Shown here: one piece after another, positions 1 through 16,992 of the stretch | How the letters are laid out: each line of letters starts with the position of its first letter | Position numbering within the stretch: position 1 is the stretch's first letter | Origin: Pseudomonadota bacterium | Lineage (GTDB): Bacteria; Pseudomonadota; Alphaproteobacteria; Acetobacterales; Acetobacteraceae | Assembly (NCBI GenBank): GCA_021801255.1 | Contig: JAJYYH010000039.1 | Location: 2,914-66,913 of the forward strand | Length of the DNA: 64,000 nt | Reading direction: 5' to 3' | The notes under the pieces: model-generated | What the model saw: the letters and a program-made list of their open reading frames with translations, nothing else | What the model was told of the DNA's origin: nothing | Databases searched by the model: none | Made by a program: the position numbers and the translations under genes

Positions 1-797
1 TGTCGATTCGCGATGGAGACGGCGGCAAGGTGCTGGTGCGCTGCCATGCCGGCTGCGACCAGAGGCAGGTAATCGCCGCCCTCCGCACGCGCGGCCTGTG
101 GTCGGAATGCGGGCGACGCCATGTTGGAAAATCAGCGCCACGTCCGGCCGCGACGAAACAACCGGATCAGGATGACGCCAAGCGGACCGAGGCGGCGGCC
201 ACCATCTGGCGGGCCACGATACCGGCGGCCGGCACACCGGTCCAATCCTATCTCGTGTCGCGTGGCCTGCATCTTCCACCACCGCCAGCCCTGCGCTTTC
301 ATGGCGGGCTGAGACATCCCTCGGGCGGCATCTGGCCGGCAATGGTCGCGCTGGTGACGCGCGGTGCCGACGACGCGCCGCTGGCGATCCACCGCACCTT
401 CCTCGCCCGTGACGGCGCCAGCAAGGCCCCTGCCGATCCGCAGAAGATGATGCTCGGCCCCTGCCGTCGTGGCGTCGTTCGCCTTGCCGCTCCTGCCGAG
501 GTACTGATGATCGGTGAGGGTATCGAGACCTGCCTCGCCGCCATGCAGGCGAGCGGCCATCCCGCCTGGGCGGCGCTCTCGACCTCCGGCCTGCGTGCCC
601 TCGATCTGCCGAAGGAGGTACGCGACGTGATCGTGCTGGCCGACGGCGACGAGCCCGGCGAGGCGGCGGCGCGGGACTGCGCCTGGCGGTGGAAGCGGGA
701 GGGACGGCGCGTGCGCATCGCCCGCCCACCGCAGGGAATGGATTTCAACGACATGCTGATGGGCCGCGCGCCCGCAATGCGGGAGGGCGCGCAATGA
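1..797 (+). CDS. Toprim-domain primase-like protein (5'-partial)
   Basis: The frame is open from nt 3. Cys/His cluster RCHAGCD; Toprim-type acidic motif VLADGDEPGEAAA. Stop TGA 795-797 overlaps the next start (ATGA). Confidence 0.7.
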   Translation, partial: SIRDGDGGKVLVRCHAGCDQRQVIAALRTRGLWSECGRRHVGKSAPRPAATKQPDQDDAKRTEAAATIWRATIPAAGTPVQSYLVSRGLHLPPPPALRFHGGLRHPSGGIWPAMVALVTRGADDAPLAIHRTFLARDGASKAPADPQKMMLGPCRRGVVRLAAPAEVLMIGEGIETCLAAMQASGHPAWAALSTSGLRALDLPKEVRDVIVLADGDEPGEAAARDCAWRWKREGRRVRIARPPQGMDFNDMLMGRAPAMREGAQ

Positions 798-2737
798 CCG
801 GCGACCACATGGACGAACCAGAAGACCTGATCGCGGCCACCATCGACACGGCCGAGGACATCCCCGATCCGTTGGATGGGTTGGTCGAGAAAACCGCGAA
901 CGATCCCGGCGCTCCGTTCGCGCCCGATGTCCTGGAACGGCTCGCCGCGTTGAAAAAGGATGACCGCTCGGCCTTCGAAGCGCTGCGGTCCCGATTGAAG
1001 AAGGCAGGCTGTCGGGTCACCGCCCTCGATGAAGCCATGGCCGACGAAAGCGGTGATGGCGGACGCAGCCCCTCCCAGGCCGACATCCTGATCGAACTGG
1101 CTGCGGCTGCCGATCTGTTCCATTCCCCGGACGGCACTGGCTTCGCCGACATCGATATCAATGGCCATCGTGAAACCTGGCCAATCCGCGCCAAGGGTTT
1201 TCGCCGCTGGCTGGCCCGTCGCTTCTTCGAGGCGACCGAGGGTGCGCCAAGTTCCGAGGCGCTGCAATCGGCCCTCAACGTGATTGAGGCCAAGGCCCAT
1301 TTCGACGGACCGGAACGCATCGTCCATGTCCGTGTCGGCGGGCTGGACGGTCGGCTTTACCTCGACCTTGGCGACGAGGCGTGGCGGGCGGTGGAGATCG
1401 ACACCACCGGCTGGCGGGTGATCGACAATCCCCCCGTTCGATTCCGCCGCGCCGCCGGAATGCAGCCCTTGCCGATGCCGGCGCCCGGCGGCTCCGTCGA
1501 TAGGCTGCGATCCTTCCTCAACGTCCAGTCCGATGCCGACTTCGTGCTGGTGGTCGCCTGGACGCTGGCCGTCTTGCGCAATCGCGGCCCCTATCCGGTA
1601 ATCGTGCTGTCAGGCGAGCAGGGATCAGCAAAATCCACCTTCTCGGCAATCCTGCGGGCGCTCCTCGATCCCAATACCGCGCCGCTGCGCGCCTTGCCGC
1701 GCGAGGATCGCGATCTGTTCATCGCCGCCAGCAACGGTCATGTGCTCGCCTTCGACAATGTGTCGGGCCTGCCGGCCTGGATTTCCGACACCCTGTGCCG
1801 GCTGGCCACCGGCGGCGGCTTCGCGGTGCGCCAATTGTACACCGACCACGACGAGGTGCTGTTCGACGCCGCCCGGCCGGTGATTCTGAACGGGATCGAG
1901 GATATCGTCACCCGTCCCGACTTGGCCGACCGGGCCGTCTTTCTGACCCTGGAACCGATCCCGGAGGAGCGCCGCCGTCCCGAGGCGGAATTGTGGGCCG
2001 CGTTCAATGCCGAACGCCCGCGCATTCTGGGCGTGCTGCTCGACGCGGTGGTGGTGGGGCTCCGTCGCCTGCCGGAAACCCGTTTGGAGAAGCTGCCCCG
2101 CATGGCCGATTTCGCACTGTGGGCGACGGCCTGCGAGACGGCGCTATGGTGCGCTGGCACCTTCTGGGCCGCCTATTGCGGCAACCGCGACGACGCGGTG
2201 GAGGGCGTGATCGACGCCGACCCGATCGCCGCCGCCGTACGCGCCATCATGCTGACGCGGACGGTGTGGACGGGAACCGCCTCCGATCTTCTGGGCGCCC
2301 TGGCTAGGGTGGCGGGCGAGCGCGTCGCCAAGTCCAAGACTTGGCCGGATAGCGCTCGGGCGCTGGCGGGCCGGCTGCGGCGGGCGGCAACTTTCCTGCG
2401 CAAGATCGGCATCGAGATCGGCTTCGGGCGCGAAGGACGGGCACGGACGCGCACGATCCACATCTCCACCATACCCGGCCAGTCCAAGCCGGAAGATGGC
2501 GGGGCGCAACCGTCCGCATCGTCCGCGTCCATGTCGAAGTCCAACCCGGCTAAGGGCTTCACGGCTCCCGATCTGCGGACGGTCGCCAACGATGCGGACG
2601 GTACGGGCCGCGCCTCGGTCCCAACCGTCCGCGCCAACCCGTTGAAATCCAATGCGGGAAGCGATGCGGACGGTGCGGACGCAAATCGCCCGTCTCAATC
2701 CGGGCAGGAAAAAGTGGGTTGGAGAGCCCGGCTATGA
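794..2737 (+). CDS. P-loop NTPase, SF3/D5-like helicase of phage/plasmid primase-helicase modules
   Basis: ATG 794 is coupled to the upstream stop. Walker A-like VLSGEQGSAKST, Walker B-like HVLAFDNVS, motif C-like VILNGIE. The first 35 codons of tracked ORF 689..2737 overlap the toprim gene and were discounted. Confidence 0.6.
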   Translation: MTGDHMDEPEDLIAATIDTAEDIPDPLDGLVEKTANDPGAPFAPDVLERLAALKKDDRSAFEALRSRLKKAGCRVTALDEAMADESGDGGRSPSQADILIELAAAADLFHSPDGTGFADIDINGHRETWPIRAKGFRRWLARRFFEATEGAPSSEALQSALNVIEAKAHFDGPERIVHVRVGGLDGRLYLDLGDEAWRAVEIDTTGWRVIDNPPVRFRRAAGMQPLPMPAPGGSVDRLRSFLNVQSDADFVLVVAWTLAVLRNRGPYPVIVLSGEQGSAKSTFSAILRALLDPNTAPLRALPREDRDLFIAASNGHVLAFDNVSGLPAWISDTLCRLATGGGFAVRQLYTDHDEVLFDAARPVILNGIEDIVTRPDLADRAVFLTLEPIPEERRRPEAELWAAFNAERPRILGVLLDAVVVGLRRLPETRLEKLPRMADFALWATACETALWCAGTFWAAYCGNRDDAVEGVIDADPIAAAVRAIMLTRTVWTGTASDLLGALARVAGERVAKSKTWPDSARALAGRLRRAATFLRKIGIEIGFGREGRARTRTIHISTIPGQSKPEDGGAQPSASSASMSKSNPAKGFTAPDLRTVANDADGTGRASVPTVRANPLKSNAGSDADGADANRPSQSGQEKVGWRARL

Positions 2738-3267
2738 GCGCGGCCGACGCCATCAAGGCGGCTCGCGCCGCCGGCATCGACCTGGAGATTGATGGCGACG
2801 ATCTGGTGCTGAACGCCACCATGCCGCCGCCCGCCGCCGTGCTCGACCTGCTATCGCGCCACAAGGTCGCCATCGTGGCCTTGCTGCGTCCGGCCAAGGA
2901 TGGATGGTCGGCCGACGACTGGCGGGTCTTCTTCGACGAGCGCGCCGGTATCGCCGAGTTCGATGGCGGGCTACCACGCGCGCAGACCGAGGTCCGCGCC
3001 TTCGCCTGCTGCGTCGCCGAGTGGCTCAACCGCAATCCTGTGCGGTCACCGCATGGGCGCTGCCTTGGATGCGGTGGCGGCGAACAGGCCCATGATCCGC
3101 TGCTGCCGTTTGGCACTGCAATCATCGGCCATGCCTGGTTGCATTCCGGATGCTGGGCAGCCTGGCATACCGCCCGGAAGGCCGAGGCCGTCACCGCGCT
3201 GGCGACGATGGGGATCGTGGCACCGGCCAACTTTCCAGACGATTTCGGAAAAAGCGGGGGCGTGTGA
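2734..3267 (+). CDS. Hypothetical protein (Cys/His-rich C-terminal half)
   Basis: ATG 2734 overlaps the upstream stop region (gene ends 2737). Coding-like composition; CLGCGGG...HAWLHSGCWAAWH cluster. Stop 3265-3267 overlaps the next ATG (TGATG). Confidence 0.55.
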   Translation: MSAADAIKAARAAGIDLEIDGDDLVLNATMPPPAAVLDLLSRHKVAIVALLRPAKDGWSADDWRVFFDERAGIAEFDGGLPRAQTEVRAFACCVAEWLNRNPVRSPHGRCLGCGGGEQAHDPLLPFGTAIIGHAWLHSGCWAAWHTARKAEAVTALATMGIVAPANFPDDFGKSGGV

Positions 3268-3914
3268 TGGGCGGATTCGGATCGGGACGGCCGAGCGGTT
3301 CGGGGCGCGACACGGTGGAAGGCAGCCGTTCGATTGATATCAACCGGCTGCACAAGGTGGGCTGCCTGGCTCCTGGATGGGCCGGCGGCTGGCAATGGAC
3401 CCGCGACGGCGAGAAGGTTGCCTCGATCAGCATGCGTGCCGAGGCCGACCGGCTGCATCTGTCCTATCGCGTGCGCATCGGCGGCGGCGAATGGGAAGAC
3501 GTGGCCGAGACCGTCCGCATCGTCCGCGTCGCCTGCCGGCTCGGCGGAACGCGGCCCTATTTCATCTGCCCTGGCGTGGTCAACGGCATCCCCTGCGGCT
3601 GGCGCGTCGCCAAGCTGCACGGTCCTGGGCGCTATTTCCTGTGCCGCCATTGCTATCGGTTGGCCCATGCCAGTCAGAGCGAGGGCGCTTTGGACCGGAT
3701 GCACCGGCGAGCCCACAAACTCAAGCAGCGGCTCGGCGGCGACCCCGGCACGAATTTTTTCTTCCCCCAACGGCCCAAGGGCATGTGGCGGCGCACCTAC
3801 GAGCGCCTGCGCGAACAAGCCTCCGAGGCCGAGATGCTGGCCGATAAAGCCTTTGAAATCGAGGCGGCGCGGCTGCTGGCACGGATCGACAATCGGAAAT
3901 GGAGAAGGAGATAA
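3267..3914 (+). CDS. Hypothetical protein with zinc-ribbon-like motif
   Basis: Starts MGGFGSGRPSG at ATG 3267. CPGVVNGIPCGW...CRHC four-Cys arrangement. Same-strand tight packing. Confidence 0.55.
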   Translation: MGGFGSGRPSGSGRDTVEGSRSIDINRLHKVGCLAPGWAGGWQWTRDGEKVASISMRAEADRLHLSYRVRIGGGEWEDVAETVRIVRVACRLGGTRPYFICPGVVNGIPCGWRVAKLHGPGRYFLCRHCYRLAHASQSEGALDRMHRRAHKLKQRLGGDPGTNFFFPQRPKGMWRRTYERLREQASEAEMLADKAFEIEAARLLARIDNRKWRRR

Positions 3915-3919
3915 CAGCG

Positions 3920-4729
3920 ATGATCGAGAGCAAGACCACCCTGCCGGCGGAGGCTGGCGGCATCGAGATCACGCGCTTCAACGCGCTGCGCCACGGTATC
4001 CTGTCCCGGTACACGATACTGCCGTGGGAGGATGCCGGCGAATACCGGGCGCTTGTCTCGGCGCTGGTGGCGGAGCATCGGCCACTGGGACCGACCGAGG
4101 AACATCTGGTCGAGGAACTGGCCGGCATTCTGTGGCGCAAGCGCCGCTTGCGGTTGGCCGAGGCTGCCGCCCACCGGCGCGGTCTCAACGGCACGCTGGC
4201 CTCGTACCGGGAGACGGTGAAGATGGCGCTGGTCCATCTCGACGCCGCCGACCAGACCGTGCGGGTGATCGATGCCATCCGCGCCACCGATGCCGACACC
4301 GACGACGACATCCGGGATATTCTTGACGGCAAAGCGATGGTCCGTCGTGCCCTCGACCTGCTCGGCTCCCGGCGCAACGACGCCTATGAAGCCGCGCTGG
4401 CAGCGCTCCGAGAGGACACGCAAGCTTGGTGGGCGGACGTGCTGGCGCACGCTCCCGGCGAGCAGACGGAGGACGAACCGCCCGCCACGGCCGACGCAGA
4501 GGGGTTGCGCCGCTTCTTGGAAGGCGAGGTGCTGCCCTGGCTGGAGACTCGCAAGAAGGAACTGGCGAATCGGCCGCTGATCCGCGAGCAGGCGTTCGGC
4601 GAGGCGCTGGACCCCGACAAGCTGGAACGGCTGGGCCGCTACGAGGTGCATCTCGACCGCAAACTGGAACGGATGCTCGCCATGCTGCTGCGCCTCAAGG
4701 ACCTGCGGCAAGCGACGGTTGAACCCTGA
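3920..4729 (+). CDS. Hypothetical protein (helical, acidic)
   Basis: ATG 3920 is preceded by AAGGAGA 7 nt upstream. An alternative ATG at 3899 would overlap the previous gene. Confidence 0.5.
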   Translation: MIESKTTLPAEAGGIEITRFNALRHGILSRYTILPWEDAGEYRALVSALVAEHRPLGPTEEHLVEELAGILWRKRRLRLAEAAAHRRGLNGTLASYRETVKMALVHLDAADQTVRVIDAIRATDADTDDDIRDILDGKAMVRRALDLLGSRRNDAYEAALAALREDTQAWWADVLAHAPGEQTEDEPPATADAEGLRRFLEGEVLPWLETRKKELANRPLIREQAFGEALDPDKLERLGRYEVHLDRKLERMLAMLLRLKDLRQATVEP

Positions 4730-4830
4730 TCCGTTTGGCAAAATAGGCGACCAGTGGCAGGGCGATTGAGTACGCCATTGCCTATCCGGCCAGATTGGCC
4801 AAAACTCGCCACATGCGGCGCGAGGACCAG

Positions 4831-5049
4831 ATGAGAACTCTGGCGGCAACAGACGCCAAGTACGGCTTCGGCCGGCTGATTGATCTAGCCCGCACGGCGC
4901 CGGTGATGGTCGCCAAGCATGGGCGTCCCGTCGTCGTGGTGATGGCGGTCGAGGAGTTCGAGCGGCTGACGGCGCGGGACGCGCCCGTGACTGCCGCCGG
5001 TGAGGCATACGGCGGACATACGAACGGGTCGGAACTGGCGGACGACTGA
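4831..5049 (+). CDS. Phd/YefM-family type II antitoxin (orphan, no cognate toxin downstream)
   Basis: MRTLAATDAKYGFGRLIDLARTAPVMVAKHGRPVVVVMAVEEFERL matches the Phd/YefM N-terminal fold signature. The next gene, hsdR, starts 6 nt after the stop. The start could also be 4795 or 4813. Confidence 0.7.
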   Translation: MRTLAATDAKYGFGRLIDLARTAPVMVAKHGRPVVVVMAVEEFERLTARDAPVTAAGEAYGGHTNGSELADD

Positions 5050-5054
5050 CCGGC

Positions 5055-7502
5055 ATGGACAAGCGCGCCCTCAGCGAGCGGGACATCTGCACCAAGTTCA
5101 TCACGCCCGCCTTACAGCAGGCGGGCTGGGATGAAATGGCGCAAATCCGAGAGGAAGTGAGTTTCACCAAGGGCCGCATCATCGTGCGCGGGAAGCTGGT
5201 CACACGCGGCCAGGCCAAGCGCGCCGACTACATCCTCTATTTCAGGCCCAACATTCCGCTGGCGCTGATCGAGGCGAAGGACAATACCCACAGCGTCGGC
5301 GACGGCATGCAGCAGGGGCTTGAATACGCCACGACCCTCGACATCCCCTTCGTGTTCTCGTCCAACGGCGACGGGTTTGTGTTCCATGACCGCACCGGCG
5401 CGGGCGGCGCGACCGAGACGAACCTCGCGCTCGACACCTTTCCCTCGCCAGCCGATCTCTGGGGACGCTATCGCGCATGGAAGGGGCTTACAGCCGAAGG
5501 CGAGCAGATCGTCCTTCAGGACTATTTCGACGACGGCAGCAGCAAGGCCCCGCGCTATTACCAGGTCAACGCCGTCAACGCGGCGATCGAGGCCATCGCT
5601 AAGGGCCGCGACCGCATCCTGCTGGTCATGGCGACCGGCACAGGCAAGACCTACACCGCCTTTCAGATCATCTGGCGGCTGTGGAAGGCCGGGCGCAAGA
5701 AGCGCATTCTTTTCCTGGCCGACCGCAACGTGCTGATCGACCAGACGATGGTCAACGACTTCCGGCCGTTCGGCTCGGCGATGGCGAAGCTGTCCACCAA
5801 CGCCAAGACCATCGGGCGCGACGACGGGAGCAGCATCGAACTGACCACGGCCATTGATAAGAAGCGCCGCATCGACACGGCCTACGAGGTCTATCTCGGC
5901 CTCTATCAGGCGATCACCGGCCCGGAGGAACGGCAAAAGCTGTTCCGCGAGTTCTCGCCCGGTTTCTTCGACCTGATCGTGATCGACGAGTGCCATCGGG
6001 GCAGCGCCGCCGAGGATTCGGCGTGGCGCGAAATCCTCGACTATTTCTCGTCTGCCACCCAGATCGGCATGACCGCTACGCCGAAGGAGACGAAATACGT
6101 CTCCAATATCGCGTATTTCGGCGAGCCGGTTTACACCTATTCCCTGAAGCAAGGCATCCACGATGGCTTCCTCGCGCCCTACAAGGTGGTCAAGGTCCAT
6201 ATCGACCGTGACGTGGAGGGCTACCGGCCCGAGAAAGGCCAGCTCGACCGCGAAGGCGAGGAGGTGGAGGACCGCATCTACAACACCAAGGACTTCGACC
6301 GCACGCTGGTGCTGGACGATCGCACCAAGCTGGTCGCGAGCAAGGTCACGGAGTTCCTGAAGGAGAGCGGCGACCGGTTCCAGAAAACCATCGTCTTCTG
6401 CGTCGATCAGGAACACGCGGCCCGGATGCGGCAGGCACTCGTCAATGAGAACGCCGATCTTGTCGCCGAGAATCACCGCTACGTCATGCGCATCACCGGC
6501 GGTGACCCCGAAGGCCAGGCCGAACTGGACAACTTCATCGACCCCGAATCCCGGTACCCCGTCCTCGTCACCACCTCGCGCCTCTTGTCCACTGGCGTCG
6601 ATGTGCAAACCTGCCGGCTGATCGTGCTCGACCGCGAGGTCGGCTCGATGACCGAGTTCAAGCAGATCGTCGGGCGTGGCACCCGCGTCCACGAGGACAC
6701 CCGGAAATTCTACTTCACCCTGATCGACTTCCGGGGCGCCACCAGCCATTTCGCCGACCCCGAGTTCGACGGCGAACCGGTGCAGATTTACGAGCCGGGA
6801 GAGGACGATCCCATTACCCCGCCCGATGTACCGCCGACCGGCGAAGATGGCGAGACGCTGCCGCAACGGCCCGGGGATGACGAAACCACCGTCGATGGGC
6901 CACCCGATGTCACCTTCCCGCCGGTCGGCGGCAAGGTAAAGAAGATTTATGTCGATGGCGTCGGGGCCACCATCATCGCGGAACGGGTGGAGTACCTCGA
7001 TGAGGACGGCAGGCTCGTCACCGAGTCGCTGCGCGATTTCACGAAGAAGGCGCTGAAGAAGCGTTTCGCCAGCCTCGACAACTTCCTGAAGCGCTGGAAG
7101 GCGGCGGAGCGCAAGCAAGCGATCGTGGAGGAGTTGGAGGCCGAGGGTCTGCCGCTCGATCTCGTGGCCGAGGAACTGGGCAAGGACCTCGATCCGTTCG
7201 ATCTGATCTGCCATGTCGCCTTTGACCAGAAGCCGCTCACCCGCCGCGAACGGGCGGAAAACGTAAGAAAGCGTGACGTTTTCACCAAATACGGCGATCA
7301 GGCCCGCGCCGTGCTCGACGCGCTGCTCGCGAAATATGCCGATGAGGGCGTGCTCGACCTCGACGACAGCAGTATGCTGAAGATCGCCCCGTTCAACCGG
7401 ATGGGCAGCGTTGTCGAACTCATCAGGGCATTCGGCGGGAAAGACGGCTTCGAGCAGGCTATCCACGAATTGCAATCAGCCCTTTATCAGGAATCCGCGT
7501 AA
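5055..7502 (+). CDS. hsdR: Type I restriction enzyme R subunit
   Basis: N-terminal ICTKFITPALQQAGWD nuclease-region signature; Walker A MATGTGKT; DEAH box VIDECHRG; motif VI QIVGRGTR. 815 aa. Confidence 0.95.
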   Translation: MDKRALSERDICTKFITPALQQAGWDEMAQIREEVSFTKGRIIVRGKLVTRGQAKRADYILYFRPNIPLALIEAKDNTHSVGDGMQQGLEYATTLDIPFVFSSNGDGFVFHDRTGAGGATETNLALDTFPSPADLWGRYRAWKGLTAEGEQIVLQDYFDDGSSKAPRYYQVNAVNAAIEAIAKGRDRILLVMATGTGKTYTAFQIIWRLWKAGRKKRILFLADRNVLIDQTMVNDFRPFGSAMAKLSTNAKTIGRDDGSSIELTTAIDKKRRIDTAYEVYLGLYQAITGPEERQKLFREFSPGFFDLIVIDECHRGSAAEDSAWREILDYFSSATQIGMTATPKETKYVSNIAYFGEPVYTYSLKQGIHDGFLAPYKVVKVHIDRDVEGYRPEKGQLDREGEEVEDRIYNTKDFDRTLVLDDRTKLVASKVTEFLKESGDRFQKTIVFCVDQEHAARMRQALVNENADLVAENHRYVMRITGGDPEGQAELDNFIDPESRYPVLVTTSRLLSTGVDVQTCRLIVLDREVGSMTEFKQIVGRGTRVHEDTRKFYFTLIDFRGATSHFADPEFDGEPVQIYEPGEDDPITPPDVPPTGEDGETLPQRPGDDETTVDGPPDVTFPPVGGKVKKIYVDGVGATIIAERVEYLDEDGRLVTESLRDFTKKALKKRFASLDNFLKRWKAAERKQAIVEELEAEGLPLDLVAEELGKDLDPFDLICHVAFDQKPLTRRERAENVRKRDVFTKYGDQARAVLDALLAKYADEGVLDLDDSSMLKIAPFNRMGSVVELIRAFGGKDGFEQAIHELQSALYQESA

Positions 7503-7506
7503 GCCC

Positions 7507-8963
7507 ATGTCTGTCCGCACCACCGTCAAATCGATCCAGGATATCATGCGCCAGGATACCGGCGTCGATGGCGATGCCCAGCGCATCAGCCAATTGTGCT
7601 GGATGTTCTTCCTGAAAATCATCGACGATCAGGATCAGGAACTCGAACTCCTCGACCGCAATTACCGCTCGCCGATTCCGGTGGAATACCAGTGGCGCAC
7701 CTGGGCGGCGAACCGCGAGGGGATCACGGGTGAGGAACTCATTGCCTTCGTCAACGGCGAGTTGTTTCCGGCGCTCAAAAACCTTTCAGTCTCGCCCAAG
7801 CCCGGCGACCGCCGCCGTGTCGTGCGCGACGTGTTCGAGGATGCCTACAACTACATGAAATCCGGCCAACTCATGCGGCAGGTGGTGAACCGGATCGATG
7901 ATGTCGATTTCAACAACCTCGTTGAACGCCAGCATTTCGGCGACATCTATGAGCAGATTCTCAATGATCTGCAATCAGCCGGCAACGCGGGCGAGTACTA
8001 CACGCCGCGCGCTGTCACAGCTTTCATGGCCGACCGGATCGACCCGCACCCCGGGGAACTTCTGCTCGATCCCGCCTGCGGCACCGGCGGCTTCCTGACC
8101 AGCGCCATCCGCCACATGCGCGACCGCTACGTGAAGCGGCCCGAGGACGAGCAGAAGATGCAGGCCGCGTTGCGCGCGGTCGAGAAGAAGCAGCTTCCGC
8201 ACATGCTCTGCGTCACCAACATGCTGTTGTACGGCATCGAGGACCCCGGCTTCGTCCGCCACGACAACACGCTGGCGCGCCCCTATATCAGTTATACGCA
8301 GTCCGACCGGGTGGACATCGTGCTGACCAATCCGCCCTTCGGCGGGCGCGAGGAAGACGGGATCGAGTCCAACTTCCCGCAGCATTTCCGCACGCGGGAG
8401 ACCGCGGACCTGTTCCTCGCCCTCATCATCCGGCTGCTGAAGCCGGGCGGGCGCGCCGCCGTGGTGCTGCCGGACGGCACGCTGTTCGGCGAGGGCGTCA
8501 AGACCCGGCTCAAGGAACATCTGATGGAGGAATGCAACCTCCACACCATCGTCCGCCTGCCCAATTCCGTCTTCCGGCCCTATGCCTCGATCGGCACCAA
8601 CCTGCTGTTCTTCGAGAAGGGCACGCCGACCAAGGACATCTGGTTCTACGAGCACCGGGTGCCGGAAGGCCAGAAAGCCTATTCGATGACCAGGCCGATC
8701 CGCCTGGAGCATCTGCAAGGCTGCATCGACTGGTGGGGCGGCAAGGCTCGGAAGGGCCGCGAGGAAACCCCGCAAGCCTGGAAAGTGACGGCCGATGAGG
8801 TGAAGGCGCGCGGCTACAACCTTGACATCAAGAACCCGCATAGCGTGGCGGATGACCACGGCGACCCCGAGGCGCTGCTCGCAGCCTCAACGCCGCCGAG
8901 GCCGAGACGGCGAGCTTGCGCGAGCAACTCAAGACGATCCTTGCCGAGGCGCTGCCGCGATGA
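7507..8963 (+). CDS. hsdM: Type I R-M DNA methyltransferase M subunit, apparent frameshift near 8881-8886
   Basis: AdoMet motif LDPACGTGGF and catalytic motif NPPFGG. After ...GDPEALLA the start frame turns into Arg/Ser/Pro-rich junk that runs to 9309. The frame offset by 2 nt reads SLNAAEAETASLREQLKTILAEALPR-stop (TGA 8961-8963), a typical HsdM C-terminal helix. Confidence 0.85.
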
Positions 8964-9011
8964 CATCCATGACACGGGTGGACAAACGCCCGCTCATGCC
9001 CGGAGGCCGCC

Positions 9012-9428
9012 ATGCATCCCGCCATTGCTGAAAAGCGCGAGACGTTGGCCGCACTCTGCCGCCGCTACGGCGTGGTTCGCCTGGAGGTATTCGGCTCGGC
9101 CGCGCGTGGCACGGATTTCGACCCCGCAAGCAGCGACGCGGATTTCCTCGTCGAGTTCGACAAGGCCGGCGGCCTATCTCCGCTCGACCAGTTCTTCGGC
9201 CTCGCCGAGGCGCTGGAAACGCTGCTCGGCCGCCCGGTCGATCTCGTCGAACCATCGGCCATCAGGAACCCCTATCTTCGCGCCGCGATCAACCGGTCGA
9301 GAGAGTTGATCCACGGCTATGCGACTGTCGATCATCCCCAGGTATGGCGGATCGTGCGGGAGTCGCTTCCCGGCCGTCGCGAGACGGTTGCCGCCCTCTT
9401 GGCCGAAATGGGCCCGCCCGACCCATGA
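9012..9428 (+). CDS. MntA-like nucleotidyltransferase antitoxin fused in frame to the C-terminal ~40 aa of a HepT (DUF86/HEPN) toxin
   Basis: NTase motifs FGSAARGT...DADFLVEF in residues 1-~95. The tail is SRELIHGYATVDHPQVWRIVRESLPGRRETVAALLAEMG, which matches the HEPN R-x(4-6)-H..Y end of DUF86 proteins. The remaining ~80-100 aa of a HEPN domain is absent. The stop overlaps the hsdS start (ATGA). Confidence 0.75.
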   Translation: MHPAIAEKRETLAALCRRYGVVRLEVFGSAARGTDFDPASSDADFLVEFDKAGGLSPLDQFFGLAEALETLLGRPVDLVEPSAIRNPYLRAAINRSRELIHGYATVDHPQVWRIVRESLPGRRETVAALLAEMGPPDP

Positions 9429-11146
9429 ACGCCGAACGTCTGCTCGCCCATTACCACCGCATCGCCGACGCCCCGGACGCCATCGCCCGGCTGCGGCGGT
9501 TCATTCTCAACCTCGCCGTGCGCGGCAAACTGGTGCCGCAGAACCCTAACGACGAGCCGGCGGCGGAGTTGCTGAAGCGGATTGCGAGGGAGATTCCGGC
9601 CTCAAAGGGCGGACGTTCCTGGACAGGCCCGATGGCATACGATGTGCCGAAGGGTTGGGTCTGGATACGCCTCGGCAGACTGGTTGCACACTCGGACGCG
9701 GGATGGAGCCCGAAAACCGAAGATTTTCCGCGAAGTGGCGATGAATGGGGCGTCCTGAAAGTTAGCGCCGTTTCATGGGACAAGTTCCGTCCATGGGAAA
9801 ACAAGCAGGTATTGCCGGGAACTGAACCGAGGACTCAAGCTGAGGTGAAGCAAGGAGATTTCCTGATTTCGAGGGCCAATACGGCTGAATTGATTGCTCG
9901 CGCCGTTCGCGTCGAAGACCATCCATTCAAGCTCATGATGAGCGACAAGATTGTGCGCCTTCATCTGAGCGCGAACTGCGACCACCGCTTCGTGTGGATC
10001 GTCAATAATTATGCGGATTTTGCAAGAGAGCACTACGTACACCACGCATCTGGCGTAAGCCCGTCTATGAAAAATGTTTCACGAGACGTTATCTTGAACC
10101 TCCCCTTTCCCCTCCCACCCCTCGCCGAACAGCACCGCATCGTCGCCAAGGTCGATGAATTGATGGCGCTGTGCGACCGGCTGGAGGCGGCGCGGAAGGC
10201 GCGGGAGGCGACGCGCGACCGGCTGGCGGCGGCCAGCCTCGCCCGCCTCAACGCCCCCGATCCCGACACCTTCCCCGACGATGCCCGCTTCGTCCTCAAC
10301 ACCCTCCCGGCCCTCACCGCCCGCCCCGACCAGATCAAGCAGCTCCGCCAAACCATCCTCAACCTCGCCGTGCGCGGCAAACTGGTGCCGCAGGACCCAA
10401 ACGACGAACCGGCATCGGAATTGTTGAAGCGGATCGCCAAGGAGAAGGCGCGGCTGGTGAAGGCGGGGGAGATAAGACCAGACCGACCATTGTCGATGAT
10501 CGAGCAAGATGATTTTCCGATGAGCGTGCCGATCGGATGGGCCTTGGCTCGGTTGGCAACGATTAGTCTTCGAATACACTACGGATTCACGGCTTCCGCT
10601 GATTTTGCTTTAAAAAATGTTCGTCTGCTGCGCATCACAGACATTCAAGACAACGCTGTTGACTGGCCCTCTGTCCCTGGGTGCGTGATAGACGCTGGTA
10701 ACGTCGATCAGTACAAAATAGAAAAAGGAGACATTTTAATCGCTAGAACAGGAGGGACGATCGGAAAAACCTTCCTCGTGCGGGATGCCCCTGTAACAGC
10801 AGTGTTTGCTTCATATCTGATACGAGTACAGGGCACGCGACACGTCTTCGACGAGTATTTGAAGTTGTTCTTGGAGTCACCACTCTACTGGACTCAGTTG
10901 CGCGACGGCGCAAGGGGAACAGGTCAGCCAAACGTCAATGGGCACACGTTAGGAATGTTGATCGTTTCCCTCCCACCCCTCGCCGAACAGCACCGCATCG
11001 TCGCCAAGGTCGATGAACTGATGGCGCTGTGCGACCGGCTGGAGGCGAGCCTCGCCACCGCCGCCGACACAAGCCGCCGCCTGCTCGACGCCCTTCTCGT
11101 CGAGGCGCTGGCGCCGGCCGAATCCAAACTGGAGGCGGCGCAATGA
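9425..11146 (+). CDS. hsdS: Type I R-M specificity subunit
   Basis: Two variable target-recognition regions of lower GC (about 9650-10080 and 10480-10960) alternate with duplicated conserved regions (LNLAVRGKLVPQ.PNDEPA.ELLKRIA twice; LPPLAEQHRIVAKVDELMALCDRLEA twice). Confidence 0.95.
   Translation: MNAERLLAHYHRIADAPDAIARLRRFILNLAVRGKLVPQNPNDEPAAELLKRIAREIPASKGGRSWTGPMAYDVPKGWVWIRLGRLVAHSDAGWSPKTEDFPRSGDEWGVLKVSAVSWDKFRPWENKQVLPGTEPRTQAEVKQGDFLISRANTAELIARAVRVEDHPFKLMMSDKIVRLHLSANCDHRFVWIVNNYADFAREHYVHHASGVSPSMKNVSRDVILNLPFPLPPLAEQHRIVAKVDELMALCDRLEAARKAREATRDRLAAASLARLNAPDPDTFPDDARFVLNTLPALTARPDQIKQLRQTILNLAVRGKLVPQDPNDEPASELLKRIAKEKARLVKAGEIRPDRPLSMIEQDDFPMSVPIGWALARLATISLRIHYGFTASADFALKNVRLLRITDIQDNAVDWPSVPGCVIDAGNVDQYKIEKGDILIARTGGTIGKTFLVRDAPVTAVFASYLIRVQGTRHVFDEYLKLFLESPLYWTQLRDGARGTGQPNVNGHTLGMLIVSLPPLAEQHRIVAKVDELMALCDRLEASLATAADTSRRLLDALLVEALAPAESKLEAAQ
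9503..9590 (+). repeat. hsdS conserved-region direct repeat, copy 1 (partner 10355-10440)
   Basis: Includes an identical 36-nt run, ctcaacctcgccgtgcgcggcaaactggtgccgcag, present in both copies. Confidence 0.9.
10111..10189 (+). repeat. hsdS distal conserved-region direct repeat, copy 1 (partner 10969-11047)
   Basis: 79 nt, cctcccacccctcgccgaacagcaccgcatcgtcgccaaggtcgatgaa(t/c)tgatggcgctgtgcgaccggctggaggcg, with 1 mismatch between copies. Confidence 0.95.
10355..10440 (+). repeat. hsdS conserved-region direct repeat, copy 2 (partner 9503-9590)
   Basis: See partner; flanking codons are also similar. Confidence 0.9.
10969..11047 (+). repeat. hsdS distal conserved-region direct repeat, copy 2
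   Basis: 78/79 identical to 10111-10189. Confidence 0.95.
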
Positions 11147-12297
11147 CCGGCGCGCCGGTCGATCCCCATCTGCTGCGCTGGGCGCGGGAACGGGCCGGGC
11201 TGGAGCCGGCCGATCTGCTCCACCGCTTCCCCAAGCTGGAGGAATGGGAGACGGGCGCGCGACAGCCCACGCTCCGGCAGTTGGAGAGCTTCGCCCACGC
11301 CGTCCACGTGCCGGTGGGCTACCTGTTCCTGCCCGCGCCGCCCGACGAGAAGCTGCCGATTCCCGATTTCCGCACCATGGCGGGGCGCCCGGTGCGGCGG
11401 GTCAGCCCCAATCTGCTCGATACGCTCTACGCCTGCCAGGAACGGCAGGGCTGGTACCGCGAATTCGCGGTGGTGACCCACGCGGCCAAGGCGCCGTTCG
11501 TCGGCAGCCTGACCACCGAAACGCCGGTCGCCGAGGCGGCGCGGGCCATGGGCGCGGCGCTGGGCTTCGATCTCGACGCGCGCGCGGCCTGCCGCACCTG
11601 GGAAGAGGCGCTGCGGCTATTCATCGGCCAGGCCGACCGCGCCGGAATCCTGGTGATGGTCAGCGGCGTGGTGTTGAGCAACAACCGGCGCAGACTCGAC
11701 CCAGACGAGTTTCGCGGCTTCGCCTTGGCCGACGCCCTGGCGCCACTGGTCTTCATCAACGGCGCCGACACCAAGGCCGGGCAGATGTTCACCCTCGCCC
11801 ACGAGCTTGCCCATCTGTGGCTGGGCGCCTCGGCGTTGTCCGACACCAGTCCGGCGATCATGGGCGGGCACCGGCGGGAAGAGGTGTGGTGCAACGCCGT
11901 GGCGGCGGAACTGCTGGTGCCGCTGGATGCCGTGCGTGCGGCACTTGTCGAAGACGAGGCGCTCGACGCGACGTTGCACCGGCTGGCACGGCGCTTCAAG
12001 GTCAGCACCCTGGTGATTCTGCGCCGCCTGCTCGACGCGGGCGCGCTCGACCGCGCGGGCTTCGATGCGGCATGGGGCGCCGAATTGGATCGGCTGCGCC
12101 GGCTGGCGCGGGATGGCGCCGACGGTGGCGACTTCTACCGCACCACGCTGTCCCGCGTCAGCCGCCGGTTCGCCCGCGCCCTGGTGGAAAGCACGCTGGA
12201 GGGCCAGACGCTTTATCGCGACGCCTTCCGCATGCTGGGGGTGGCGAGGACCGAGACCTTCAATACCATCGGCCGCGAGGTGGGGGTGATGCTTTGA
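11143..12297 (+). CDS. XRE-like HTH + ImmA/IrrE (COG2856/DUF955) zinc metallopeptidase
   Basis: ATG 11143 overlaps the hsdS stop (ATGA). N-terminal HTH-like LLRWARERAGLEPADLL...TLRQLESFAHAVHVPVGYLF. HEXXH motif in TLAHELAHLWLG. Confidence 0.8.
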   Translation: MTGAPVDPHLLRWARERAGLEPADLLHRFPKLEEWETGARQPTLRQLESFAHAVHVPVGYLFLPAPPDEKLPIPDFRTMAGRPVRRVSPNLLDTLYACQERQGWYREFAVVTHAAKAPFVGSLTTETPVAEAARAMGAALGFDLDARAACRTWEEALRLFIGQADRAGILVMVSGVVLSNNRRRLDPDEFRGFALADALAPLVFINGADTKAGQMFTLAHELAHLWLGASALSDTSPAIMGGHRREEVWCNAVAAELLVPLDAVRAALVEDEALDATLHRLARRFKVSTLVILRRLLDAGALDRAGFDAAWGAELDRLRRLARDGADGGDFYRTTLSRVSRRFARALVESTLEGQTLYRDAFRMLGVARTETFNTIGREVGVML

Positions 12298-12809
12298 CCC
12301 GCTACCTGCTCGACGCCAACATCTTCATTCAGGCCAAGAACCTGCATTACGGCTTCGATTTCTGCCCGGCCTTCTGGGATTGGCTGATCGCTCGGAACAA
12401 GGCCGGCATGGTGGCCAGCATCGAGAAGGTGGGGGACGAACTCCAGGCCGGCGGGGATGATCTTTCGACCTGGGCGGACCAGCGCGGGCGCGGGTTCTTC
12501 ATGCCGCCCGATGATGCCGTCCTGCCCGCATTGCGGCAAGTCAGCACCTGGGCGACCGGCCAATCCTATGAACCCGCCGCCATCGCCACCTTCTTGCAGG
12601 TCGCCGATTACTGGCTCCTCGCCCAGGCGCTGGCCCACGGCTTCACCATCGTGACGCATGAGGTGCCGTCCGAATCGACCCGCAAGATCAAGATTCCCAA
12701 TGCCTGCATCGGTCTCGGGATCGCCTGTCTGAGCCCCTACGAGATGCTGCGCCGTGAACGCGCACGCTTCGTGCTGGGCGGTGCATCATCGAGGCCCCAA
12801 AATGGCTGA
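12294..12809 (+). CDS. DUF4411-family PIN-like protein (usual partner of ImmA/IrrE peptidases)
   Basis: TTG 12294 overlaps the upstream stop (TTGA). (M)TRYLLDANIFIQAKNLHYGFDFCPAFWDWL is the characteristic DUF4411 N-terminus. Only the last 171 codons of tracked ORF 11244..12809 are judged real. Confidence 0.7.
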   Translation: MTRYLLDANIFIQAKNLHYGFDFCPAFWDWLIARNKAGMVASIEKVGDELQAGGDDLSTWADQRGRGFFMPPDDAVLPALRQVSTWATGQSYEPAAIATFLQVADYWLLAQALAHGFTIVTHEVPSESTRKIKIPNACIGLGIACLSPYEMLRRERARFVLGGASSRPQNG

Positions 12810-12940
12810 AGCCGCCCAGGCGAACCGGGACGGCCTCGAACGCTCCTCCTACGCATGGCAGGTGAGACCTGCTTCATATGCCGCGCTTGATGCCGAGAAT
12901 CAACGAATTCCGTATGCTGGCCGTGGCGGGACAGACTGAC

Positions 12941-13798
12941 ATGCCCGCCTTCACCCGCTATATCGGCATCGACTATTCGGGCGCGGAAACGCCGTCCGCC
13001 AGCCTGAGGGGCTTGCGCGTCTACCAGACCGAAGGCACCACACGGCCCGTCGAGGTGCCGCCGCCGCCCAGCCGGCGCACCTATTGGACCCGCAAGGGCA
13101 TCGCGGAATGGCTGGTGGAGACGCTGGCCGAGGACGTGCCGACGCTGGTCGGCATCGATCATGGTTTCTCGTTCCCGCTGCGCTATTTCGAGGTTCACCG
13201 CCTGCCGCCCGACTGGCCGGCATTCCTCGACGATTTCCAACGCCATTGGCCGACTGATGAGGACAACAGCTACGTCGATTTCGTGCGCGACGGTTCCGCC
13301 GGCAACGGGGCCGCGCGCATGGGCCATGCACGCTGGCGGCGGCTGACCGAGGAACGGGCCGGCGGCGCCAAATCGGTCTTTCATTTTGACGTGCAGGGGA
13401 CGGTCGCGAAATCCACCCATGCCGGCCTTCCGTGGCTGCGCTTCATGCGCCGGCAATTGGGCGCGCGCGTGCATTTCTGGCCGTTCGACGGCTGGGACAT
13501 TCCGGCCGGCCGCTCCGCCATTGCCGAGGTCTATCCGGCGCTGTGGAGCCGCAGCTTCGCCCGCGAGGAACGCACCGCCGACCAGCACGACGCCTTCAGC
13601 ATCGCCGCCTGGCTGTCGCGCGCTGGCCACGACGGCACCCTGGCCGCGTTCCTGAAGCCAGACCTGACACCGCCCGAGCGCACCGTGGCCCAGGTCGAGG
13701 GCTGGATACTGGGCGTGCCGGGCTTGATCCGGGCCGACGGCGAGCGCAACGATTCAAAAGGCGCCGCTTGCAATCCGCTAGCGTCAAGTTTACACTAA
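12941..13798 (+). CDS. Uncharacterised protein (possible RNase H-like/ASKHA-like fold)
   Basis: Starts MPAFTRYIGIDYSGAETP. There is a second LVGIDHGFSF motif and a conserved-looking C-terminus QVEGWILGV. It sits between the DUF4411 gene and the recombinase. The fold assignment is a guess. Confidence 0.5.
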   Translation: MPAFTRYIGIDYSGAETPSASLRGLRVYQTEGTTRPVEVPPPPSRRTYWTRKGIAEWLVETLAEDVPTLVGIDHGFSFPLRYFEVHRLPPDWPAFLDDFQRHWPTDEDNSYVDFVRDGSAGNGAARMGHARWRRLTEERAGGAKSVFHFDVQGTVAKSTHAGLPWLRFMRRQLGARVHFWPFDGWDIPAGRSAIAEVYPALWSRSFAREERTADQHDAFSIAAWLSRAGHDGTLAAFLKPDLTPPERTVAQVEGWILGVPGLIRADGERNDSKGAACNPLASSLH

Positions 13799-13803
13799 AC
13801 AGT

Positions 13804-15423
13804 ATGGCAAAGACACCGAAGCCCACACCCGCCGATCCCGCCCGCAAACAGGCGGTGATCTATGCTCGCGTCTCCTCGAAGGAGCAGGAGAAAGAGGGCT
13901 TCTCGATCCCCGCGCAATTGAAACTGCTGAAGGACTACGCCTCGGCCAACGGCTTCGCGCTCGCCCAGGAATACGTGGACGTTGAGACCGCCAAGCACAC
14001 GGGGCGCACCGCCTTCGGCGAGATGATCGCCTATCTGAAGGTCCATCCGGCCATCCGCGTGCTGCTGGTCGAGAAAACAGACCGGCTCTACCGCAACCTC
14101 AAGGACTGGGTGACCATCGACGAGTTGGACATCGAAATCCACTTTCCAAAGGAAGGGGTGGTGCTGTCGCGCGACTCGCGATCGTCGGAAAAGTTCATGC
14201 ACGGCATCAAAGTGCTGATGGCGAAGAACTACATCGACAACCTGTCCGAGGAGGCGCGCAAGGGCCAGCAGGAAAAGGCCGAGCAGGGCATCTGGCCGAC
14301 CAAATGCCCGCTGGGCTACCGCAACGCCGTCGGCCCCGACGGCAAGAAGATCATTGTCACCGATCCGGCCGTGGCCCCCGTCATCACCAAGATGTTCCAG
14401 CGCTACGCCACCGGCCAATACTCGTTGCAAGAGGTGGCGCTGATGGCGCACGGCGACGGCCTGGCCTACCGCAAGAGCGGCGCCAAGGTTCCGGTCAGCA
14501 GCATCCACAAAATCCTGCACAACCGGCTCTACACCGGCTGGTTCGAGTGGAAGGGCAAGCTGATCCAGGGACGCCACGAGGCGCTGGTCACGATCGATCT
14601 GTGGGAGCGGGCGCAGGATGTGCTCGCCGGCCGCTTCGCCAAGAAGCATCGGCGCGTCACCCACGATTTCGCCTTCTCCGGCCTGATGACCTGCGCCCAT
14701 TGCGGCTGCTCGATCGTCGGCGAGATCAAGAAGCAGCGCTACGTCTACTATCACTGCACCGGTTATGCCGGAAAAAGCGAGGGCACGCCCGGCACCTGCC
14801 ATCGCAAATATGTCCGCGAGGAAGTGCTGGAGCAGCAGTTCACCGAGATGCTCGGGCGCCTGCGCTTCGATGACGAGGTGCTGGCCTGGGTGCGGGATGC
14901 CCTGCGCGCCAGCCATGCCGACGAACGCCGCGACCACGAGGAAGCCATCGCCCGTCTGCGGGCCGAGCACAAGCGGCTCGGCGACCGGATCAACGCCATG
15001 TATATCGACAAGCTGGATGGCAAGATCGGCGGCGACTTCTACGACCAGTTCGCCGGCCAATGGCGGGAGGAACAGGCCCGCTGCCAACGGGAGATCGACT
15101 GCCACGAATCCGCCGAGCAGTCTTACATGGACGACGGGATCAGGATTCTCGAACTGGCGCAGAACGCCCAGCGCCTGTTCGCACGCCAGGAACCGCGCCA
15201 GAAAAGGCGCCTGCTCAATTTCGTGCTATCGAACTGCATCTGGGACGATGGAAAGATCACCCCGACCTTCCGTCAACCCTTTGATCTGTTGACGGAAACC
15301 ACCGCCATCGCTGCGCGCCAGGAGGCGGCGACAGTAGCCAATTCGGCGAAAAGTGAGATTTGGCTGGGGGACCTGGATTCGAACCAAGGCTGCCCGGGTC
15401 AGAGCCGGGAGTTCTACCGCTAA
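13804..15423 (+). CDS. Large serine recombinase (resolvase/invertase catalytic domain + recombinase domain + zinc ribbon + coiled coil)
   Basis: Catalytic-Ser motif AVIYARVSSKEQEKEGFSIPAQ. Zinc-ribbon Cys cluster CAHCGCSIVG...YVYYHCTGY. Long helical C-terminal region. The last 63 nt are antisense to tRNA-Gln. Confidence 0.9.
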   Translation: MAKTPKPTPADPARKQAVIYARVSSKEQEKEGFSIPAQLKLLKDYASANGFALAQEYVDVETAKHTGRTAFGEMIAYLKVHPAIRVLLVEKTDRLYRNLKDWVTIDELDIEIHFPKEGVVLSRDSRSSEKFMHGIKVLMAKNYIDNLSEEARKGQQEKAEQGIWPTKCPLGYRNAVGPDGKKIIVTDPAVAPVITKMFQRYATGQYSLQEVALMAHGDGLAYRKSGAKVPVSSIHKILHNRLYTGWFEWKGKLIQGRHEALVTIDLWERAQDVLAGRFAKKHRRVTHDFAFSGLMTCAHCGCSIVGEIKKQRYVYYHCTGYAGKSEGTPGTCHRKYVREEVLEQQFTEMLGRLRFDDEVLAWVRDALRASHADERRDHEEAIARLRAEHKRLGDRINAMYIDKLDGKIGGDFYDQFAGQWREEQARCQREIDCHESAEQSYMDDGIRILELAQNAQRLFARQEPRQKRRLLNFVLSNCIWDDGKITPTFRQPFDLLTETTAIAARQEAATVANSAKSEIWLGDLDSNQGCPGQSREFYR

Positions 15424-15434
15424 ACTATCCCCCA
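15361..15434 (-). tRNA. tRNA-Gln (anticodon CUG)
   Basis: Manual cloverleaf of the minus strand: acceptor TGGGGGA/TCCCCCA (U1-A72, typical of bacterial tRNA-Gln), D arm GTT..AAC, anticodon stem CCCGG/CCGGG with loop CT-CTG-AC, T arm CTTGG-TTCGAAT-CCAGG, discriminator G, encoded CCA. Confidence 0.9.
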
Positions 15435-15507
15435 ACGCATCCTCGAGCCTTCTACCGCGCGGTGATGCGAGCGACAAGGGTGGTTGCGACCAGCCGGGTT
15501 CGGCCCG

Positions 15508-16875: not shown

Positions 16876-16992
16876 CGCGGCTCTATTCCCTCCGATCGAA
16901 CTTCGAGCCTTAGCGGCGGGGCGCGGAATTGGCCAGGGGGAGCGACATTTCGGGTCTTTACGGGCCGTGCCGGAGGCGGCAGGCTCGACCCC

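Follow-up and report, generated by a model that had tools for sequence, protein, structure and literature searches.

How does the gene of a large serine recombinase come to end inside a tRNA gene read from the opposite strand, and what becomes of the C-terminus of its product when the element that carries it moves? The question is raised by a 64,000-nucleotide stretch of an Acetobacteraceae genome (assembly GCA_021801255.1, contig JAJYYH010000039.1; this whole stretch is called the window below), in which a recombinase open reading frame (ORF) runs to a TAA stop at 15421-15423 and shares its last 63 nucleotides (nt), 15361-15423, with tRNA-Gln(CUG), being antisense to positions 12-74 of the tRNA. 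An earlier note on this DNA had described the overlap in these terms, and both ARAGORN and the translation of the ORF agree with it; its figure of ~21 tRNA-encoded C-terminal residues was right in kind, the number being exactly 20 (W520-R539, WLGDLDSNQGCPGQSREFYR) plus the stop, at the end of a C-terminus that reads ...KSEIWLGDLDSNQGCPGQSREFYR. The codon of Trp520 (TGG, 15361-15363) complements the encoded CCA of the tRNA, which is the sole full copy of tRNA-Gln(CUG) in the 3.18-Mb assembly and is 100% identical to its counterpart in one congener (G003) and ~99% identical to those of two others (G001 and G005) over 78-79 nt. The contig carrying the window, here C56, extends 2,913 nt upstream of window base 1, and positions that refer to the contig are prefixed accordingly.

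The recombinase has Pfam matches to Resolvase (PF00239, E=1.6e-22, residues 17-163), Recombinase (PF07508, E=1.5e-14) and Zn_ribbon_recom (PF13408, E=3.7e-13), and these domain assignments show it to be a large serine recombinase. The ATG at 13804 is backed as the start codon by the lengths of homologues (523-540 residues), and Ser24 would be the counterpart of Ser10 of the resolvases. A serine recombinase at a tRNA 3' end, at first taken for a local oddity, is in fact standard across a large conserved family whose targets are tRNA-Gln and tRNA-Asn genes. Our database search returned >5,800 relatives, the best 120 of which are all at least 71% identical to the recombinase, and among 80 related loci taken from species-representative genomes the Trp codon falls exactly on the tRNA CCA in 63; because the same codon recurs on the same triplet, comparison of these loci confirms that the overlap did not arise by chance. 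The tRNAs concerned are tRNA-Gln(CTG) (38 loci), tRNA-Gln(TTG) (13) and tRNA-Asn(GTT) (12).

Alignment of the C-termini of the best 120 relatives, which had been suggested as a check, gives a common sequence up to (K/S)EIW and, after it, a few divergent classes that resemble antisense tRNA: LGD, LGDLDSNQD, LGDLDSNQGCPGQSREFYR, LPDLGSNQGPAD and LPGPDSNQRPTG. The integrated-form tail thus comprises 2, 8 or 18 (or more) residues after W-L, tracking the host tRNA variant, and its stop is likewise supplied by that variant, for example as TAG in the T stem or as TAA/TGA after the T stem. Since both length and stop are set by the host tRNA, this tail appears to be unselected. In a tree of 44 complete proteins, made by a quick method with 19 incomplete rows excluded, the Asn-targeting members fall into two well-supported clades among the Gln-targeting ones, and users of Gln(CTG) and Gln(TTG) are intermixed inside tight clades. 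The hosts are chiefly Alphaproteobacteria, with Betaproteobacteria, Myxococcota, Bdellovibrionota and others also represented. A third class of right junction, in non-tRNA DNA, was seen at L009:11561, L041:11561 and L067:1393 and in proteins P0095 and P0049; here the ORFs continue after EIW-L with CNQS.../CSQS.../SVQS..., the DNA reads TGGCTGTGCA.CCAGTC...GCGAAC, and the target may be a non-tRNA attB that mimics a tRNA arm.

Where, then, does the element end? Its left end is located at C56:587-688, and the sequence at its left boundary (C56:557-592, 36 nt) repeats the recombinase-tRNA junction (15330-15366); the local alignment scores 52-53, and 30 shuffles reached at most 27. The left-end copy likewise finishes in TGGCTG, the complement of CAGCCA at tRNA nt 71-76. 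At the other junction, the tRNA-Gln loci of three congeners match up to the CCA and are unrelated immediately beyond. Across the family, TGGCTG stands at every right junction of the Gln type and at most left junctions, with TGGCTC at tRNA-Asn junctions and TGGGTC at one left end, and the sequence preceding the core differs between left junctions. Together, these alignments show that the island entered tRNA-Gln(CUG) precisely at its CCA end, and that the tRNA stays whole without a duplicated piece of it, the two junctions having only TGGCTG in common. As the core is conserved at the junctions and the preceding left-junction sequence is variable, the crossover is placed inside TGGCTG, and its dinucleotide is probably CT or TG.

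Several expectations of the earlier note can be settled at this point. It had placed an island junction inside the recombinase ORF, and the junction indeed lies there, at the first six bases of the overlap; it had also put the left attachment (att) site outside the window, which holds, and had considered the crossover impossible to place, which does not, as the contig itself includes the left end, 2.3 kb before window base 1. The direct repeat of the tRNA 3' segment that it looked for as attL is absent beyond TGGCTG: no second copy of a tRNA segment of at least 14 nt was found in the genome or the window, nor within 10 kb upstream in the ~45 related loci that were assessable. The missing repeat does not refute the island, because such a repeat is what tyrosine integrases, not serine recombinases, would lead one to expect. 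The proposed comparison with empty tRNA-Gln loci of related genomes showed where identity ends, namely at the CCA, and gave no clean attB.

The arms flanking the core carry a further mark of serine integrases. Both the P' arm (offset 23-29) and the B' arm provided by the tRNA (offset 18-24) carry the motif TCGAACC, and a scan of P'/B' shifts from -6 to +10 was best at +5, with a mean identity of 0.60 vs a background of ~0.2. In silico, this +5-bp offset corresponds to the known attP/attB signature of serine integrases; for LI integrase, the motif of the zinc-ribbon domain is described as lying 5 bp closer to the centre in attB than in attP (PMC3783163).

Independent sources for either site were also sought. 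A congener's empty site was rejected as a source of attB, the DNA being unrelated on both sides of tRNA-Gln and synteny scrambled across the four genomes of the genus, and C10:16551 was rejected as the far flank, the upstream part of C10 being core DNA that is placed elsewhere in congeners. Phage and plasmid collections gave no source of attP and no close relative of the recombinase (best identity 32%), and relatives in IMG/VR occur only in integrated form, with no exact attP pattern.

The left end of the island holds the second half of the answer. In the frame of the recombinase, C56:587-688 encodes a 33-residue tail (WLRFVNTYRTMCIAPEPGFRRVLEEIREMRLAA-stop) that opens with WLRFVNTYRTMC and closes with REMRLAA-stop, and joining the island ends through the predicted circle joint (...GAGATT-TGGCTG-CGGTTTGTG...) yields an intact ORF of 552 residues vs 539 in the integrated form, so that the C-terminus does differ between the two forms, as had been proposed. 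The same 33-residue tail terminates six full-length homologues (P0080, P0122, P0123, P0125, P0126 and P0063) and is also seen in 27 metagenome contigs and at left ends in further genomes from the same class and order. Over tail codons 11-31 in nine left ends from different genomes, variability at the three codon positions is 0.31/0.16/0.57. The tail is exactly 33 residues long in 18 of 19 distinct examples and ends in AA in 15 and in LAA in 11 of them, LAA being the C-terminal hallmark of the ssrA tag recognised by ClpXP. Conservation reaches 69 nt past any plausible 25-bp half-site.

Third-position bias, fixed length and AA ends point, therefore, to selection on a translated product. In integrated left ends, the tail frame lacks its own start codon and follows arbitrary sequence, so that selection could act on the tail only when the ends are joined; the pattern implies that the tail is a selected coding sequence, translated only as a fusion to the recombinase. 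By the same comparisons, attP is shown to lie inside the integrase gene, and integration to swap the C-terminus of the enzyme.

The reading that we favour, to which we would give a probability of roughly 0.7, is that the integrase recombines inside its own gene at the tRNA CCA, that the free-form tail is functional, and that the swap alters the enzyme. The free circle would express a 552-residue integrase with the 33-residue tail encoded by the left end, and the integrated gene a 539-residue integrase whose last 18 residues derive from the antisense strand of the tRNA. The tail would most likely serve as a C-terminal tag for ClpXP-type degradation, and might contribute to directionality as well, so that integrase made from the circle would be short-lived or proficient for integration; integration would then replace the tail by unselected sequence, with altered stability or activity as the consequence, and the gene would hold a built-in record of the state of the element. 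A degradation tag and a directionality device are thus the two roles suggested by the tail. A bolder form of this proposal, which we hold only tentatively, is that no separate directionality factor is needed: the state would be written in the integrase gene itself, the tailed 552-residue form being short-lived and/or limited to integration, and the 539-residue form differing in stability or able to excise. No candidate recombination directionality factor was identified in the island.

Several observations weigh against the favoured reading. The left junction here is not a clean host arm; it consists of a 36-nt remnant of the 3' end of a different recombinase, so that the history of integration was not a simple attP x attB event, or decay followed it. 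We saw no excised circle, empty site or activity for this island, and the tail-bearing full-length proteins could stem from tandem arrays instead of circles. The LAA ending is frequent, not universal (11/19). Read from the sequence, the P and P' arms are only weakly dyad-symmetric, and this symmetry centres on CT or TG without fixing the choice between them. An AlphaFold model of a free-form homologue is confident in the catalytic core, the recombinase domain and the coiled coil (helices 349-445, predicted local distance difference test (pLDDT) values up to 94), and it gives pLDDT <50 for the linker and tail, with a short terminal helix at 528-543 and no structural hint of a function; in this model, the low-confidence region fits a tethered peptide.

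The alternative that survives best, although we consider it rather improbable, accepts the whole anatomy and denies the swap any regulatory meaning, the att site lying by accident in the last codons of the gene and both forms of the enzyme behaving alike. The arbitrary length and sequence of the integrated-form tails fit this view, as does the flexible appendage modelled by AlphaFold, and McMurdie et al. voiced such a trivial reading for the recombinase DsiB (PMC3146451). An accidental tail, however, would leave unexplained the features of the free form set out above: the exact length of 33 residues, the strong third-position bias, AA ends in 15/19, and conservation running 69 nt beyond the half-site.

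Far less probable is that the island is a fixed, decaying remnant that no longer moves, its left-end tail being a relic of an older tandem array. The recombinase remnant at the left junction, similar to the right-hand copy in 33/37 columns and not identical to it, stands beside a fragment of IS110 type, and both arrays and displaced tRNA fragments do occur in related loci. Against decay, the recombinase ORF is intact and a 99%-identical protein cluster (P0002) exists elsewhere; none of P arm, core and P' arm is missing, and the joined ends restore an uninterrupted 552-residue ORF; and the backbone genes are intact and conserved. Least probable of all is a classical tRNA island, moved in the manner of tyrosine integrases, with a second copy of the tRNA 3' segment at its far end and the serine recombinase as a passenger. 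In its favour is the position at a tRNA 3' end, the usual place of tyrosine-integrase islands (PMC4383910); against it stand the missing second tRNA segment (none of at least 14 nt in the genome, the window or the ~45 assessable loci), the lack of a tyrosine recombinase among the island ORFs scanned and the invariant recombinase-tRNA junction across the family.

The composite left junction, which the favoured reading has to accommodate, may reflect repeated use of the site. Between the end of a core gene and the recombinase-remnant junction sits a transposase fragment of the IS110 family (DEDD_Tnp_IS110, E=3.8e-6, below the Pfam cut-off; C56:140-520, minus strand), which may mark a deletion that removed an older element. 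Recombinase remnants of 9-34 codons precede the left end in many metagenome contigs, drawn from a search that demanded the last six bases of the P arm and is hence biased; in unbiased genome samples, a remnant is present at only 2 of ~12 left ends. We consider accretion at a tRNA hot spot likely, each new element settling beside the tRNA and its older neighbour decaying. Use of an attR-like site by a serine integrase is not accounted for by current models (PMC3783163).

How does this arrangement compare with known systems? The phage-type large serine integrases (Listeria A118/LI Int, TP901-1 Int, phiC31 and Bxb1) are alike in the order of Resolvase, Recombinase and zinc-ribbon domains, in their long coiled-coil helices, in short att sites with a tiny common core, and in a distal motif that lies 5 bp farther out in attP. 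Similarity to the solved members is weak (TP901-1, E=1.7e-7; A118, E=2.7e-5), and, in contrast to phage-type integrases, the enzyme described here targets a tRNA 3' end and not a protein gene, with attP inside the integrase ORF.

DsiB of Dehalococcoides, a CcrB-like serine recombinase, invariably overlaps the att site, attL, with its 3' end and may run antisense into a small RNA gene (PMC3146451). Its islands form tandem arrays downstream of the ssrA RNA gene (PMC3146451), and its authors suggested that the enzyme is fully functional only on the circle (McMurdie et al. 2011, PMC3146451). DsiB alignments are divergent over the ssrA/repeat overlap, and a circle-form tail is not described for it (PMC3146451), whereas the free-form tail here is strongly conserved. 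The target of DsiB is tmRNA, with insertion in the T loop inferred and a 20-bp direct repeat, whereas here it is the tRNA CCA end with a 6-bp core. DsiB also has a small partner recombinase, DsiA, and none was present among the island ORFs scanned here; the two systems are compared by description.

The integrases of myxophage Mx8 and of mycobacteriophage BPs are both tyrosine recombinases. For Mx8 IntP/IntX, attP is described as lying within int (Tojo 1996; Magrini 1999; review PMC6070905), with integration creating a new 3' end and altering the properties of the integrase; the enzyme here is instead a serine recombinase of a non-viral island, sharing the design without belonging to the Mx8 Int family. 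In the mycobacteriophages BPs and Brujita, attP also lies inside an ORF, and integration strips 33 C-terminal residues ending in an ssrA-like tag (Broussard 2013; PMC4557955), and the BPs integrase bears a C-terminal proteolysis signal too (PMC4557955). The split gene of BPs is the repressor, whereas here it is the serine integrase itself, with a putative degron.

Islander-type tRNA islands are recognised by different marks: neither a tyrosine recombinase in the ORFs scanned nor, at the far end, a displaced piece of the target tRNA was found here, and, according to the Islander paper, tRNA genes are not among the known targets of serine integrases (PMC4383910). The literature that we searched contained no description of the present tRNA-targeting family. 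A survey of Mesorhizobium lists elements at tRNA-Asn and tRNA-Gln and, separately, a few elements with serine recombinases, and the two are not linked there. What is distinct in the present system is the combination of a tRNA CCA target with a 6-bp core, a split serine integrase gene, and a conserved, degron-like tail confined to the free form.

The element so delimited spans C56:593 to window position 15360, ~17.7 kb, with every large gene on the plus strand (Table 1) and a G+C content of 0.57-0.66 across most of 4500-15000 vs ~0.70 to the right of the tRNA. It contains an XRE regulator, an ImmA-like peptidase, a Toprim primase, a 682-residue backbone protein, type I restriction-modification (R-M) genes, a DUF4411 module and a 306-residue protein, and is best explained as a 17.7-kb non-conjugative, non-viral element with the recombinase as its integrase. 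Homologues of the 682-residue protein, 76-82% identical, occupy the same position in six related loci, and type I R-M cargo is also present in ~20. In 20 of the 80 related loci, a homologue of the 306-residue protein (~80%) is encoded immediately before the recombinase; this protein is possibly an accessory factor, though not a universal one. Among the island ORFs scanned, which did not include all small ORFs, there was no tyrosine recombinase (PF00589), and no second serine recombinase was found among the ORFs scanned. A compact relative of ~9 kb (L022:2600-11600) lies at tRNA-Asn and is free of R-M cargo, its backbone running in the order XRE, ImmA, primase, 682-residue protein, three small genes and recombinase; a search of it with the tail motif did not find its left end, which is of the tRNA-Asn type.

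Table 1 Features of the island and of its junction with tRNA-Gln(CUG). Positions refer to the window unless prefixed with C56, the contig that carries it.
Feature	Position	Strand	Basis
Integrated island body	1..15360 within the window; starts at C56:593, 2.3 kb upstream of window base 1	+	Left end, G+C content, backbone genes
Toprim/DUF7146 primase-like gene, C-terminal part	1..797 (whole gene C56:2691-3710)	+	Pfam DUF7146 1.5e-31, Toprim_3 3e-21
682-residue backbone protein	689..2737	+	No Pfam match
Type I restriction-modification cargo hsdR, hsdM, hsdS	5055..11146	+	Pfam ResIII/EcoEI_R_C, N6_Mtase/HsdM_N, Methylase_S
DUF4411-containing gene	11244..12809	+	Pfam DUF4411 3.7e-52
306-residue protein, directly upstream of the recombinase	12878..13798	+	No Pfam match
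Large serine recombinase, integrated form, 539 residues	13804..15423	+	Stop-free translation, Pfam domains
Ser24 codon, YARVS motif, presumed catalytic nucleophile	13873..13875	+	Inside the Resolvase match; invariant in the alignment
P arm of the attachment site and core	15330..15366	.	Direct repeat, 33/37 columns, of C56:557-592 at the left boundary
Core TGGCTG, complement of tRNA nt 71-76 CAGCCA	15361..15366	.	Common to both junctions
tRNA-Gln(CUG), intact; acceptor 3' strand and T arm are the putative B' half-site	15361..15434	-	ARAGORN
Host-encoded tail codons G522-R539 and stop	15367..15423	+	Antisense of acceptor stem, T arm, variable loop and anticodon arm

The surroundings of the tRNA are varied in the relatives as well. 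Because each congener has different DNA downstream of tRNA-Gln, we regard the site as an insertion hot spot and the genus as heavily rearranged. None of the four genomes of the genus shares with another its gene order near tRNA-Gln and the neighbouring major facilitator superfamily (MFS) transporter gene (window 15435-16900, L085-L088, L096-L098). In four related loci (L014, L035, L037 and L081), just the 3' ~45 nt of tRNA-Gln, from the CCA to the anticodon arm, come after the recombinase, and unrelated DNA takes over beyond them; these fragments look like displaced tRNA pieces, as expected if another element later entered the tRNA. In one case (P0124, 343 residues, PF00589), a tyrosine-integrase ORF runs into a serine-recombinase 3' remnant (..SKAENEIW) and then into the left-end tail (LPFLDTYRTMC...), which speaks for arrays in which tyrosine- and serine-integrase islands are mixed. 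A repeat of ~120 bp at C10:~7990-8125 (L099), of which each of three congeners has dozens of copies (80-93% identity), looks like an element of the repetitive extragenic palindromic (REP) or miniature inverted-repeat transposable element (MITE) type.

The locus thus belongs to a family of large serine recombinases whose targets are the terminal bases of tRNA-Gln and tRNA-Asn genes, often with defence cargo. Such islands are likely to be overlooked or given wrong borders, because they do not leave the duplicated tRNA fragment that island-finding software seeks. The anatomy is supported, at the level of sequence, by many independent loci, and the function of the tail swap is what we infer from it. 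The conserved, degron-like tail offers a testable natural mechanism by which a serine integrase may sense whether its element is integrated, which bears on the open question of how directionality is controlled and on genome-engineering tools with ready-made tRNA landing sites. If the state of the element is indeed written in the integrase gene, a whole, widespread family of serine integrases that target tRNA ends would steer the direction of recombination by swapping their own C-terminus.

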